Shown here one piece after another: positions 5,970-10,488 of a DNA stretch of 64,000 nucleotides. The position numbers and the translations under genes were made by a program. Below the pieces are notes generated by a model. That model did not search any database, had not been told where the DNA came from, and saw nothing but the letters and a program-made list of their open reading frames with translations. Origin of the DNA: an uncultured virus (IMG/VR IMGVR_UViG_3300021399_000142) (lineage: Duplodnaviria > Heunggongvirae > Uroviricota > Caudoviricetes); IMG/VR virus record IMGVR_UViG_3300021399_000142; one strand, given 5' to 3'. Position 1 is the first letter of the stretch. Each line of letters begins with the position of its first letter.

Positions 5970-6149
5970 ATGATTAAAATAATTAAAAAGGGAACAAAAC
6001 AAGTAAAAGAATGTGAAGATTGTGGATGTGTATTTTCTTTTGATGAAGAAGATATTGAAAAAATAAATTATAGTTCCCATCCAGGATATAAAAGGATAAT
6101 TCGATGTCCACAATGTGAAACAGTAATAATTTTGGAGGCTACTAGATGA
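5970..6149 (+). CDS. Small zinc-ribbon protein (59 aa, not in ORF track)
   Basis: AAGGAGG RBS; MIKIIKKGTKQVKECEDCGCVFSF...RCPQC; stop overlaps the recJ ATG. Confidence 0.7.
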   Translation: MIKIIKKGTKQVKECEDCGCVFSFDEEDIEKINYSSHPGYKRIIRCPQCETVIILEATR

Positions 6150-7897
6150 AATTTGAATTAATAAATCAACCAGATGATGGTTTAACTGCAACACAACAAT
6201 TATTCATAAATAGAGGATTACAGTTAAATGAAATAGAACATTATATGAATTTAACTGATGATGATATAAATTCGCCTTTACTATTAGGAGAAGAAAAATT
6301 AAAAGAAATTGCGGGAATCGTTACTTCAATGGTGCCGAGTGGTCAGAACCTTGCCGTAATAGTCGACGCAGATGCAGATGGATACACTAGTTCGGCGACG
6401 CTGTTGAACTGGTTTTATTATTCATATCCCGAGTGGACTAAAGAGCATGCATTTTATTATTTACATGATGGAAAAACTCATGGATTAACCCCTGGAGCTA
6501 TGTCTTTTATTCGAGATATAGAGGCTGATGTTGTATTCATTCCAGACGCCGGAAGTAATGATCTAGAGCAGATAGAACAGTTATATAATGATAACAGAAA
6601 AATAGTTGTGCTGGATCATCATATTATCGAAGATGGTTGTAGTCCTTATGCTATTACTATTAATAGTCAAATTGATGATTACCCAAATAAAGAACTTACT
6701 GGTGCGGGTGTAACTTGGCAAACGTGTAGATACTTAGATTCAGTTAATGGGACTAACTATGCTGAGAAGTTAGTAGATTTGGTAGCCACTGGACAAATCG
6801 CAGATATGGCTCAACTCTCTTCGACAGAGACCCGCCGCATCATAACAAAAGGACTGATACCAGACAATATTATTAATCCATATCTTTTTGAAATGTGGGA
6901 AAAGAATAAATTTAAATTGGGTGATAAACCAACCGATTGGGGATGGACTTTTTATGTATGTCCTATGATTAATGCCATCACTCGCTCCGGAACAATAGAA
7001 GAGAAGACTCTAATCTTTGAGTCTATGCTCTTGTTTAAAGCATTTGAAAAAATACCTTCTACTAAAAGAGGACATAAACCAGGAGAGATGGAAAGATTGG
7101 TAGACCAGGCAGTAAGAACTTCTACCAACGTTAAAAATCGCCAAACTCGAAGCGAAAAGGCGGGAATGGATAAGCTTGAAAGTCTTATTAAAGAAAATGA
7201 TATGCTTAAGCATAAAGTGTTATTATTTACTATTAATCCTTCAGATATAGAACCTGCGATCCGTGGACTGGTTGCAAACAAAATTATGGCTAAGTATCAG
7301 AGGTGTTGTGCTGTACTTAGTGATGATGGTGAGAATTGTGCGGGAAGTATGCGAGGTTGCGGTTTAACAGGTATTATGGACTTCAAGAGTATCTGTGAAG
7401 CAAGTGGTGTAATAAACTGGGCCAGAGGGCATGAAAACGCAGCTGGTTTAAGCATCCCAACGGCCAACATAAAGAAGTTCTTGGAGAAAACTGATGAACT
7501 TTTAGCGGGAACTGCAGAAGAAGCTATATATAGAGTAGACTATATATGGGATTCCGAAAAGGTTGATTCAGCTAAAATATTAGATATTGCAGATTTTGAT
7601 CCATATATTGGACAAGGATTTTCAGAACCTCTTGTTGCTATTAAGAATATTCATATAACAAAGAATGATTTAACAATGATGAAATCAAATACTGTTAAGA
7701 TAATGACACGAGCAGGAGTTCCTATTATCTGTTTTTCTATGCCTGATGAAGAGTATGAGAAACTATACTCAGAGAATGGTGAAGTTGTAATCAATTTAAT
7801 TGGAACTGCGAATAAGAATGAATGGAATGGGAATGTTTCTGCACAGATCCTGATGAAGGATTATGAAATTGTAAAACAGTGTGCTTATGTTTTTTAA
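6146..7897 (+). CDS. recJ: RecJ-like ssDNA-specific exonuclease (DHH/DHHA1)
   Basis: DADADG, PDAG, LDHH, GQIAD and GHENAAG motifs. Confidence 0.9.
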   Translation: MKFELINQPDDGLTATQQLFINRGLQLNEIEHYMNLTDDDINSPLLLGEEKLKEIAGIVTSMVPSGQNLAVIVDADADGYTSSATLLNWFYYSYPEWTKEHAFYYLHDGKTHGLTPGAMSFIRDIEADVVFIPDAGSNDLEQIEQLYNDNRKIVVLDHHIIEDGCSPYAITINSQIDDYPNKELTGAGVTWQTCRYLDSVNGTNYAEKLVDLVATGQIADMAQLSSTETRRIITKGLIPDNIINPYLFEMWEKNKFKLGDKPTDWGWTFYVCPMINAITRSGTIEEKTLIFESMLLFKAFEKIPSTKRGHKPGEMERLVDQAVRTSTNVKNRQTRSEKAGMDKLESLIKENDMLKHKVLLFTINPSDIEPAIRGLVANKIMAKYQRCCAVLSDDGENCAGSMRGCGLTGIMDFKSICEASGVINWARGHENAAGLSIPTANIKKFLEKTDELLAGTAEEAIYRVDYIWDSEKVDSAKILDIADFDPYIGQGFSEPLVAIKNIHITKNDLTMMKSNTVKIMTRAGVPIICFSMPDEEYEKLYSENGEVVINLIGTANKNEWNGNVSAQILMKDYEIVKQCAYVF

Positions 7898-8062: not shown

Positions 8063-8590
8063 ATGCCGTTAAATATTGGTTATTTACAAGCTAAAACAGA
8101 CAAAGCTTCAGATGAAGTATACACACCAGAGATTGCTGTTTTACCATTATTAAAATATATAGATAAATCAAAAACAGTTTGGTGTCCTTTTGATATAGAA
8201 GGACAAAGTAAATATATTGAAGTTTTTAAAAAGAATGGAATAAAAACAATAGCAAGTCATATAGACACAGGACAGAACTTCTTTGAATATGAGCCGGATG
8301 AAGAGTATGATTATATCATTTCTAATCCGCCTTTCAGTATTAAGGATATGATATTGAAGAGATTAGATGAATTAAATAAACCTTTTGCTATGTTACTTCC
8401 TTTGCCAACTTTACAAGGACAAAAGAGATTTGATTATTTAAAGAATTGTCAAGCATTAATCTTTGATAAAAGAATAAATTTTTATAAAGATAAAAAAATG
8501 AAACAAGTTCAGCAAGGAGTCTCATTTGCTAGCATTTATATTTGTAAAAATTTCTTACCAGAAAAATTAATTTTTGAAGAATTAAATTAA
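8063..8590 (+). CDS. Orphan N6-adenine DNA methyltransferase
   Basis: DEVYTP, VWCPFD, GQNFFEY and catalytic ISNPPFS motif. Confidence 0.8.
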   Translation: MPLNIGYLQAKTDKASDEVYTPEIAVLPLLKYIDKSKTVWCPFDIEGQSKYIEVFKKNGIKTIASHIDTGQNFFEYEPDEEYDYIISNPPFSIKDMILKRLDELNKPFAMLLPLPTLQGQKRFDYLKNCQALIFDKRINFYKDKKMKQVQQGVSFASIYICKNFLPEKLIFEELN

Positions 8591-9010: not shown

Positions 9011-9286
9011 GTGTTAGATAAGAAGAATTTTTGTTTAATAGTAGACGCGATGAAGGAAAATTATGATAGAGGAAATCGAATTTATGACGATTTAAAGAAG
9101 TATAATATTTATATTGATAAGGAGAATCAGCCTCTTGATGTCATGTTAGAAAAGCTGATAAAAATAAATTTTAATAAATGGCAGAGTGATATTATTTTGA
9201 ATTACGCTTATCCTATTGAGAAAAGAGAAAATATATCTTCCGCAGATTTATATGATGAACTCGTTGGAACAGGAGATGAAAATTAA
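9011..9286 (+). CDS. Hypothetical protein
   Basis: GTG start with AAGGAG RBS; TAATG coupling to the helicase gene. Confidence 0.65.
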   Translation: MLDKKNFCLIVDAMKENYDRGNRIYDDLKKYNIYIDKENQPLDVMLEKLIKINFNKWQSDIILNYAYPIEKRENISSADLYDELVGTGDEN

Positions 9287-10488
9287 TGATATTAAATAAA
9301 AAGCAGCAAGATGGTTTAGATCTAGCAGTAAGGAGGTACTTAGCCGGTGAATCTTATACTACTATCGCCGGCTATGCCTAAGCTGGTTCTGGTAAAAGTA
9401 CTTTAGTCAGATTTATAGTAGAAGCTTTGGGCAATACAGGAATCAATCCAGATGAAGATATTGTTTATGCTTGTTATTGCGGAAAAGCCGTACAAGTTCT
9501 GATTGACAAAGGTAATCAAAATGCAATGACTCTTCATAAATTATTATATGATGCTATCCCAATGCCAAATGGTAAATTCTATTTTAAGCCTAAGATTCCA
9601 GGTTCTTTAGAATATAAAATTATAATAGTAGATGAAGTAAGTATGGTAAGTCAAGATTTTATTGATTTATTATTATCTCATGGTATTTACATTATTTTTA
9701 TGGGAGACCCAGGCCAACTAGGTGCTATAAAAGGTCAAGGAAATAATTTGTTAGCTCATCCGCATGTATTTTTAGATGAAATTCAAAGACAAGCCGCGGA
9801 ATCTGATATTATTAAACTTAGTATGTTAATTAGAGAAGGCAAAACAATTACGGGATTTAAAGGAAAAGATGCTATGGTTTTACCTAAAGGAACTTTAAAT
9901 ACAGGTATGTTATTATGGGCAGACCAAATCATTTGTGCAACTAATGCGACTCGAATAGCTCTTAATACTCAAGTAAGACAATTAAAAGGCTATACTAGAC
10001 CAGTAGAAGAAGGCGAAAAATTAATTTGTCTTAATAATAAATGGGATACGATAAGTGATAGAGGTAATGCTTTAACTAATGGAACAATAGGAACATTAAC
10101 AAATGTATTTGATAGTTGGCAAAGTTATCCTCAATATTTAAAAGTAAAAGACAATAAAGTTCCTCTTATAGTTGGAGCTTTTAATTCTAATAATGGAGAT
10201 GATTTTGGAAACTTATTTCTAGATAAACATTGTATTATTGAAGGAATTCCTTATTTAGATGGAATACAAAAGTATAGAATAGGAAAAATAAAAAAATATA
10301 AAGATACAATACCTTATGAATTTACTTATGCTTATGCAGCGACTTGTTGGAAATTTCAAGGTAGTTCTGCTGGAAAGGTCTTAGGTATTGAAGAAGGTTT
10401 CCCTTACAATAGAGAAGAACATAAAAAATTTTTATATACGATGTGTACTCGCGCAGAATCTAGATTTGTTCTTATTTTAAAAAATTAA
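9286..10488 (+). CDS. RecD/Dda-like SF1B helicase interrupted by an in-frame TAA in Walker A (proposed stop-hop, ~398 aa)
   Basis: ATG 9286 gives MILNKKQ...TTIAGYA*AGSGKSTL, in frame with ORF 9427-10488 (IVDEVSMV, MGDPGQL, IQRQ, KFQGS, YTMCTRA). Confidence 0.85.

Follow-up and report, generated by a model that had tools for sequence, protein, structure and literature searches.

The 64,000 nucleotides (nt) of DNA analysed here (64 kb, referred to as the window; IMG/VR record IMGVR_UViG_3300021399_000142, an uncultured virus of the Caudoviricetes) carry a gene that, judged from its sequence, is a superfamily 1 (SF1) RecD/Dda-like helicase whose Walker A motif is split by a TAA stop codon and a GCT triplet. 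We consider it quite probable that this helicase is encoded as two open reading frames (ORFs), which a programmed hop over 6 nt, leaving GCC and landing on GCT, would connect. A reading of the DNA without database searches (the sequence-only reading) had proposed this bypass, and the proposal gained support from 76 alleles with gaps of 5-8 nt in three frames. Apart from hopping, no single mechanism appears to account for the gaps of the entire family. Hopping is the best supported one because gap lengths are free with respect to frame, because a hairpin is dedicated to the site and because an endonuclease cassette is associated with it. No second helicase copy was found within the window, and the gene is the phage's only visible RecD/Dda-like helicase there.

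The split Walker A motif and its conservation

Positions 9370-9399 read GGC TAT GCC TAA GCT GGT TCT GGT AAA AGT, with GGC starting at 9370 and TAT at 9373, just as the sequence-only reading had transcribed them (further coordinates in Table 1). From 9382 onwards the frame contained no stop before the one at 10486-10488, and TTG 9427 was the earliest ATG, GTG or TTG past the TAA. When the stop was read through as X, the product had 400 residues and matched the Pfam domains AAA_30 (E 8.1e-19, 68.5 bits at a cut-off of 27), AAA_19 (55.4 bits) and UvrD_C_2 (30.9 bits). By tblastn it shared 40% identity across 99% of its length with Dda-like helicases of Enterococcus phages, and ORF1 resembled the N-terminus of intact homologues. 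The closest intact homologues in the databases, P0003 (83% identity) and P0127 (91%), read IAGYAGSGKST, and two helicases of cultured phages aligned with a two-column gap exactly at 'A X'. Since intact homologues align with such a gap there, the window carries six extra bases.

Table 1. Coordinates of the features at and around the split Walker A motif (positions in the window).
Feature	Position	Strand	Basis or detail
ORF1, first 31 helicase codons (MILNKKQQDGLDLAVRRYLAGESYTTIAGYA), the last being the putative take-off codon	9286..9378	+	ATG 9286, open until TAA
Putative take-off codon GCC (Ala31); this Ala is invariant in G-Y-A-G-x-G-K-S/T	9376..9378	+	alignment with intact homologues
6-nt coding gap: stop TAA 9379-9381 and putative landing triplet GCT 9382-9384	9379..9384	+	in relatives TAA GCT, TAA GCA, TGA GCA
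ORF2: putative resume codon GGT 9385, remaining Walker A (GSGKST), rest of helicase	9385..10488	+	stop TAA 10486-10488
Predicted 5' hairpin	9334..9379	+	-20.8 kcal/mol, z -4.72, 0/200 shuffles as good
Main stem of the hairpin, 14-nt loop	9341-9350 (UAGCCGGUGA) with 9365-9374 (UCGCCGGCUA)	+	minimum-free-energy fold of 9320-9400 has the same stem
Outer stem of the hairpin, covering the take-off codon	9334-9338 with 9375-9379	+	predicted fold
Alternative pairing, 9367-9373 with 9381-9387	9367..9387	+	broken in L145 and L147 (GCT to GCA)
Shine-Dalgarno-like run TAAGGAGGT inside ORF1 (codons GTA AGG AGG TAC)	9329..9337	+	sequence

The stop-led 6-nt gap was kept in six further metagenome contigs with 80-100% nt identity to the window (L142 100%, L143 99.9%, L144 94.4%, L145 92.6%, L146 91.9%, L147 80.3%). 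They read GCC TAA GCT in L142-L144 and L146, GCC TAA GCA in L145 and GCC TGA GCA in L147. Three other loci (L003, L004 and L125) were the window's own contig in IMG/VR (100% over 6,743 nt) and were not counted as independent. Logan contigs from two other studies (X5 record 14 and X11 record 1), which come from sheep and bovine gut according to their records, crossed the site with 0 gaps and with positions 9376-9384 unchanged; this comparison is one of contigs, which hide rare variants. Contig X4 was identical to the window but is possibly its source, and X6 spans 9612-9646 only. The 90% cluster of ORF2 had 18 members; among the 15 listed, one, P0127, was full length, and 12, drawn from JGI, ENA, Logan and NCBI and lying on contigs of up to 141 kb, were calls of 352-355 amino acids (aa) from the same downstream start. 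The sequence-only reading had held that the six bases are not a typical sequencing error. We agree, as the same bases recurred in the contigs of two other studies and in diverged relatives. An artefact of sequencing or assembly, or an inactivating mutation that arose recently in a single genome, has next to no chance of being the explanation: its prior, together with the fact that the IMG/VR copy is the window's own contig, is what speaks for it, and it is refuted by independent contigs and studies, by 76 distinct alleles and by ratios of nonsynonymous to synonymous substitution rates (dN/dS) of about 0.1.

Both ORFs are under purifying selection. For the window compared with L144, L145, L146 and L147, dN/dS was 0, 0.08, 0 and 0.10 in ORF1, 0, 0.15, 0.10 and 0.07 in the 15 start-less codons directly past the gap (codons 33-47), and 0.13, 0.08, 0.11 and 0.10 in the rest of ORF2. 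Relaxed selection past the break, which the sequence-only reading had named as the mark of a pseudogene, was thus not what we found (0.08-0.13 downstream, 0-0.15 in the start-less segment). Because independent contigs keep the gap and dN/dS is low on both of its sides, the gap is neither an artefact nor a product of gene decay. GSGKST is encoded by the 15 codons that separate the gap from TTG 9427. They contain no start codon, and their low dN/dS argues that the P-loop segment is translated although no start serves it.

These values bear on the idea that translation ends at the TAA, the helicase then being either unmade (a knock-out hitch-hiking with the cassette described below) or made as a truncated protein by re-initiation. 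Short-range re-initiation by 70S ribosomes past a stop occurs in bacteria, and gene callers do annotate a 353-aa ORF from TTG 9427. We nevertheless regard this explanation as very unlikely. A protein starting at 9427 would be devoid of the Walker A motif, whereas selection acts on the 15 codons ahead of that start and ORF1 is equally constrained. The landing triplets of the family (GCN, ACN or GTN) are not start codons, and the layout of the gap persists among alleles that are merely 40-50% identical in protein.

Searches for cultured relatives by blastn, with the locus and an allele of the majority type against 50,697 GenBank phage records, gave no match, and tblastn against cultured phages found intact helicases of at most 40% identity only. 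In Bacillus phage vB_BpuM-BpSp (KT895374.1; L231 584-2123), a homologous helicase is annotated as two hypothetical proteins about 320 nt apart; we rejected it as a case of the same interruption, as the split lies elsewhere in the gene. For three database proteins, P0018, P0032 and P0034, known as protein calls only, the annotated start lies at the P-loop or immediately ahead of it (MPGTGKTT..., ...AAMPGVGKTT... and ...PKDGSGKS...), which suggests that this site can be interrupted in other ways as well.

The family of gap alleles and the rules of the gap

A profile search of IMG/VR by protein returned 80 loci, one of them the window itself. Among the 79 others, 10 had a stop-led gap at the site (L029, L039-L042, L055, L056, L059, L060 and L067), four an intein and one a 1-nt frameshift, and 64 were intact. 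In L029, L060 and L067 the P-loop lay in a different frame from ORF1. In one relative, L037, a single extra C in the P-loop codons (GGA ACG CGG AAA AAG, around 2590-2610) shifts the frame; a sequencing error is one possible cause, a further site of recoding another. DNA-pattern scans enlarged the set: with GCY TAA all 58 sites fell in the helicase gene, and with GCN T[AG][AG] 83 of the 97 matches did, the other 14 being chance matches elsewhere. Eight further gap sites came from metagenome-assembled genomes (MAGs) labelled Clostridia, Bacilli, Mollicutes and similar, and judged from these labels only the hosts are probably gut Firmicutes. After de-duplication the set, drawn from IMG/VR, metagenomes and MAGs, comprised 76 gap alleles and 48 intact alleles.

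All gap alleles had the same layout, an Ala codon, a stop and then 2-5 nt ahead of the GGN of the P-loop. The gaps measured 5 nt in 30 alleles, 6 nt in 19, 7 nt in 14 and 8 nt in 13; gaps of 4 or 9 nt, which the search patterns allowed, did not occur in the helicase gene. Across the alleles the P-loop fell in all three frames relative to ORF1. Even close relatives differ in gap length, as L087 (TAAGGTA, 7 nt) and L110 (TAAATGCA, 8 nt) do, so the frame past the gap is free to change. In every gap allele, cutting out exactly the stop and the filler restored G-Y-A-G-[ST]-G-K-[ST], the sequence of the intact homologues. At equal downstream divergence, pairs of gap alleles were more alike upstream (identity 0.67-0.87) than intact pairs (0.57-0.65). 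We set this aside as a sign of horizontal spread, since the fixed 12-nt search pattern contributes to the difference.

The sequence-only reading had suggested looking for a codon-stop-codon arrangement at this site in homologues. In the 76 gap alleles an Ala codon was directly followed by a stop, with an Ala-like landing triplet in 75 of them. The stop that opens the gap was TAA in 53 alleles, TGA in 19 and TAG in four; a stop was required by the search patterns, yet it was also found in 10/10 of the protein-found set. One stop was exchanged for another between close relatives (window and L147, L090 and L151, L121 and L153, and within the L088 clade), and TAG opened the gap in 0/17 alleles of phages that read TAG as Gln in the helicase gene. 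The take-off codon was GCC or GCT in 75/76 gap alleles, and GCC in 2/48 intact alleles. The triplet directly 5' of the resume codon GGN was GCN in 28 alleles, ACN in 35, GTN in 12 and TCC in one, which makes it an Ala codon or a triplet one transition away from one in 75/76. In the window the landing triplet GCT is synonymous with the take-off codon GCC; in the family the landing is GCN in 28/76 and a one-transition neighbour in 47/76, where the mismatch of ACN or GTN with the Ala anticodon would be an A-C or a G-U pair. In 73/76 alleles it was the first Ala-like triplet past the take-off codon, and 0.19 would be expected with random filler. With fewer than five nt, a gap that opens with T-R-R could not offer a landing triplet whose middle base is C. 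The Ala is invariant in intact genes but T or V stands in its place in 62% of the gap alleles, which argues that the landing triplet is paired with and not translated.

The same numbers have to be confronted with recoding in standard steps, in which two residues are inserted: the TAA would be read through in the window (GYA-x-A-GSGKS), and relatives would reach the P-loop by -1, +1 or +2 frameshifts at the stop. We judge this unlikely. The range of 5-8 nt does equal six plus -1 to +2, and A, T or V at the last gap codon are conservative replacements. The product of read-through, A-x-[A/T/V]-G-x-G-K-[ST], also fits the Walker A pattern [AG]xxxxGK[ST]; the 'wrong P-loop spacing' that the sequence-only reading ascribed to it was imprecise, as A-x-A-G-S-G-K-S remains within the pattern. 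Four different events would be needed, however, at sites without a slippery sequence, with +2 for alleles of the L029 type and -1 for those of the L060 type, and the invariance of Ala in intact genes sits badly with T or V in 47/76 gap alleles. Read-through would add two residues that are absent from the full-length homologues seen. Among the 120 best matches no homologue had an insertion of sense codons, with P0073 as the sole apparent exception, since the database calls of its group read GYA-Q-[TV]-GTGKST. We discarded this group, known as protein calls only, as a counterexample: the Q is probably an in-frame TAG read as Gln, because the cluster also contains truncated calls of 346-347 aa. 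The window itself showed no sign of stop reassignment or of a suppressor, as TAA, its main terminator, ends 28/40 of its long ORFs and no tRNA gene was found in the 64 kb. Recoding with an insertion would also leave the hairpin described below without a role.

Transfer RNAs were looked for in related phages as well. Five gap-bearing phage records had 10-33 tRNA matches each. ARAGORN, run on 24 loci that cover part of the 126 matches, found no tRNA-Ala with GGC and one tRNA-Ala (TGC). Several observations on decoding were made alongside. Some helicase loci, about 30 of the 165 related ones, remain open only if TAG is decoded as Gln, their in-frame TAGs standing where relatives have Q, and four intact loci need TGA as Trp (L086, L092, L096, L097, L100, L139 and others among the helicase ORFs; L205, L208, L209, L210). 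Anticodon CTA was present among the tRNAs of the gap-bearing phage records G002, G004 and G006, and G006 had an additional tRNA whose anticodon is TCA. ARAGORN further reported two phage tRNA-like genes whose anticodons measure 2 nt ('tt') and 4 nt ('gatt') (L194 1812-1884 and L198 1420-1492), which sit in the gap-bearing records G004 and G002.

The predicted hairpin, the possible endonuclease cassette and the proposed mechanism

A hairpin was predicted directly 5' to the take-off codon, and its counterparts were present in 71/76 gap alleles. It ended 0-1 nt ahead of the take-off codon and was specific to gap alleles: the last 8 nt paired 8/8 with upstream sequence in 48/76 of them against 3/46 intact alleles (at least 7/8 in 71/76), and the 60 nt before the take-off codon had a mean folding energy of -18.8 kcal/mol across the 76 gap alleles, compared with -8.1 for the 46 intact alleles (p 6e-19 by the Mann-Whitney test). 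The window's hairpin was kept in L144-L147, where a change from ATC to ATT gives a G-U pair. Across the family the outer arms covaried (GTAGCC/GGCTAC against ATAGCC/GGCTAT), a change of TAC to TAT tending to go with GTA to ATA, and the inner stems varied in sequence yet kept their pairing (ATACAAG/CTTGTAT, TCACAG/CTGTGA, ATATAA/TTATAT). In a few gap alleles the 5' arm lay 6 nt further upstream. RNAalifold on 58 aligned alleles recovered a 3-bp local stem only, because inner-stem registers differ among alleles, and the case for the hairpin is accordingly one of single-sequence folds and of pair counts for the outer 8 bp. The conserved hairpin may stimulate hopping: while GCC occupies the P site its 3' arm would lie in the E site and exit path, so that the stem would re-form only as the mRNA advances.

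A different 7-bp hairpin, 9367-9373 with 9381-9387, had been put forward by the sequence-only reading. This pairing is possible (local fold -9.4 kcal/mol) and shares its 5' arm with the stronger upstream hairpin, with which it competes. As a conserved signal we rejected it, since it is lost in L145 and L147 and folds more weakly than the upstream hairpin. The Shine-Dalgarno-like run inside ORF1 is a perfect match with two rare AGG codons and was invariant in five relatives with 80-100% identity (L004, L144-L147). Its 3' part is the outer hairpin stem and pairs with the take-off codon in the predicted fold. Two intact helicases, P0099 and P0147, have N-termini of the gap-allele type (KIAVARY and KIAVARH; protein calls only) and may be alleles that lost the gap and kept the hairpin-coding leader.

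A conserved hairpin abutting the gap would also suit a removal of the six bases before translation, be it by hairpin-guided excision or editing of the RNA, or through a subpopulation of genomes without the gap that arises, for instance, by slippage at an inverted repeat. Intact and gap alleles do coexist in near-identical genomes (L044 and L060), and rare variants are hidden by contigs. We give this explanation a very slim chance. No enzyme is known to us that cuts 5-8 nt out of a bacterial mRNA, neither the obligatory stop nor the Ala-like landing triplet would have a function, and L044 and L060 differ by a whole 190-nt patch and not by a clean deletion.

The gap seems to be linked to a mobile element. 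An HNH gene of family phrog_2255 (Pfam HNH_2) lay directly upstream of ORF1 in 13/37 gap alleles against 0/36 intact alleles (p 7e-5), overlapping the start of ORF1 by 11-14 nt out of frame. One more gap allele, L101, carried another HNH family upstream, and two of the 36 intact alleles carried other families of homing endonuclease. A graded series could be assembled from genomes with flanks of about 96-99% identity. L128 and L134 have the HNH gene, ORF1 and the gap. In L060 the HNH gene is lost and a 51-nt remnant at about 2365-2415, between the upstream gene and ORF1, encodes its last 17 residues (NELDFNEMEEVKLDSNP*), followed by ORF1 and the gap. L044 has neither HNH gene, ORF1 nor gap, and its intact helicase has the native N-terminus, which overlaps the upstream gene. 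The patch that differs within the series ends exactly at the gap. These arrangements suggest a mobile HNH cassette of the mobA/gene 60 kind, with ORF1, the hairpin and the stop-led gap as its right-hand end; the gap may spoil the nuclease target in the P-loop DNA and leave the protein unchanged. A LAGLIDADG-type intein was seen after the GSGK of the same Walker A motif (...GSGK|AQPIN...VTHN|TTLV) in L034 (425-2692) and also in L038, L047 and L065. Its site lies 12 nt 3' of the gap site, so that one loop harbours two different selfish solutions.

Taken together, the hop might proceed as follows. The ribosome would translate the 31 codons of ORF1 until GCC 9376 is in the P site and the TAA in the A site. 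Slow termination would then let the peptidyl-tRNA-Ala unpair, and the hairpin, refolding behind the ribosome, would bias its slide forward, as proposed for gene 60. The tRNA would re-pair at the first Ala-like triplet, GCT 9382, and GGT 9385 would be decoded next, yielding the canonical ...IAGYAGSGKST... helicase. Relatives would hop likewise over 5, 7 or 8 nt.

Several points weigh against this mechanism or limit its reach. The junction peptide ...IAGYAGSGKST... and the hop itself are what we infer from DNA. The window's lineage comprises five alleles, all with in-frame 6-nt gaps, so that frames cannot separate a hop from read-through there and the argument extends from relatives. Gaps of 5-8 nt would also result if an insertion of constant length, two residues, were read by shifts of -1/0/+1/+2. 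No more than 28/76 alleles offer a perfect landing (GCN), GTA after GCC (seven alleles) should pair poorly with a GGC anticodon, and the strong pairing of GCC with its anticodon should disfavour take-off. The scans fixed GGC TAY GCN TRR, which biases the counts of those codons by ascertainment; only the protein-found set (10/79) is unbiased. The p-values (Fisher, Mann-Whitney) overstate independence because the alleles are related, and the tree is a crude neighbour-joining one on BLOSUM62 distances with no support values. Finally, the window has no HNH neighbour: none was found beside its helicase, the ORF upstream (9011-9286, 91 aa) being without a PHROG match. The window's intact relative P0127 resembles it at the N-terminus. 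For both reasons a cassette origin is inferred and not proven for the window's lineage.

Next to the helicase the window encodes a RecJ-like exonuclease (6146-7897) and a DNA methyltransferase (8063-8590). Since these genes adjoin it, the helicase would be part of the phage's replication module.

Implications and comparison with known systems

To our knowledge, efficient bypassing has for decades been known from essentially one bacterial example, T4 gene 60. The present family offers 76 natural variants of a much simpler site, which comprises a single hairpin, a stop, a gap of 5-8 nt and an Ala-like landing triplet. It could be transferred to reporters, in which one may ask what makes a ribosome release and re-pair, and whether refolding of the mRNA drives forward sliding. 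A practical consequence is that gene callers systematically truncate gap-bearing helicases, as the calls of 352-355 aa illustrate. The data also suggest that homing endonucleases could shield their own target by a few untranslated bases and not by an intron or intein; if true, HNH endonucleases would mark conserved P-loop DNA as 'self' with the enzyme unaltered.

On balance, and with some reserve, we favour a wider reading, in which the gaps belong to a second family of bypass cassettes, independent of the known one and borne by endonucleases, and constitute the first stop-hop that is both natural and widespread, with a slide of 5-8 nt by ribosomes of gut Firmicutes that is driven by refolding and with self-marking of P-loop DNA by the HNH endonuclease. 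The module would then consist of a 31-codon leader, a hairpin of 10-20 bp that abuts the Ala codon used for take-off, a stop, and a filler of 2-5 bases with an Ala-like triplet at its end. We found no report of the helicase site in the literature, subscription journals not being covered.

The likeness to T4 mobA/gene 60 (10.1101/2022.08.31.505936; 10.1101/2024.12.09.627546) is one of arrangement, and the HNH cassette described here would share its layout. Both systems consist of two ORFs for one enzyme of DNA metabolism. As in gene 60, the putative landing triplet is matched or nearly so and lies directly 5' of the resume codon, and RNA structure precedes the take-off codon. As with mobA, relatives of the window that have the HNH gene carry it directly upstream, where it overlaps the start of the new ORF in another frame (8-32 nt there, 11-14 nt here). 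The relatives of the window share further traits with mobA/gene 60: the replaced homologous stretch ends at the gap, the endonuclease is lost and the bypass kept in some lineages, and the insert sits in a highly conserved motif. For the MobA element, Manning and Atkins (10.1101/2022.08.31.505936) described how the insert protects it from its own nuclease, and for gene 60, pairing of the mRNA behind the ribosome has been proposed to aid the forward slide (10.1101/2024.12.09.627546). The 2022 preprint (10.1101/2022.08.31.505936) called the gene 60 cassette unique.

The differences are as clear. The gap of gene 60 measures 50 nt (20 in one Aeromonas clade) against 5-8 nt here, its take-off codon is Gly GGA and not Ala GCY, and its target is the Toprim domain of a topoisomerase and not the Walker A motif of a RecD/Dda-like helicase. 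Here the cassette sits at the 5' end of the gene, so that no split into two tailed proteins is needed, unlike in mobA/gene 60, and there is no room for the A-site stem-loop or the Shine-Dalgarno sequence inside the gap that gene 60 has. The 5' hairpin is 0-1 nt from the take-off codon here and 9 nt from it in gene 60; it is strongly conserved here, whereas the 5' stem-loop of gene 60 is not (10.1101/2022.08.31.505936).

Stop-hops of the proposed size have a synthetic precedent in Escherichia coli (Weiss, Dunn, Atkins, Gesteland 1987, via PMC5009743), with hops of +5 and +6 over a stop between matched codons, 9 nt yielding one amino acid. Those sites were engineered and of low efficiency, whereas the site here is natural, deeply conserved and accompanied by a dedicated hairpin; of natural in-frame stop hopping, the passage of that 2016 review stated that 'no occurences are known' (PMC5009743). 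The mitochondrial byps of Magnusiomyces capitatus (PMC5009743) are similar in that many short inserts are made harmless by bypassing and that the match between take-off and landing can be imperfect (two-out-of-three pairing). They differ in being 27-55 nt long, mitochondrial, largely independent of context and provided with an unassigned A-site codon.

Among natural cases with short inserts, the nearest is the terminase of Streptomyces phage Hau3 (PMC10732093), where candidate bypass inserts of 10 nt (7 nt in one prophage) interrupt a conserved phage ATPase gene. There, too, bypassing was preferred over frameshifting because of a conserved junction, and a 5' stem-loop was proposed as stimulator. 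The A-site codon of Hau3 is the rare sense codon UUA, for which a regulatory role tied to the host tRNA was proposed, whereas the codon in this position here is a stop; and the Hau3 type comprises three genes, with no link to an endonuclease reported in the passages concerned, as against 76 alleles in the helicase family.

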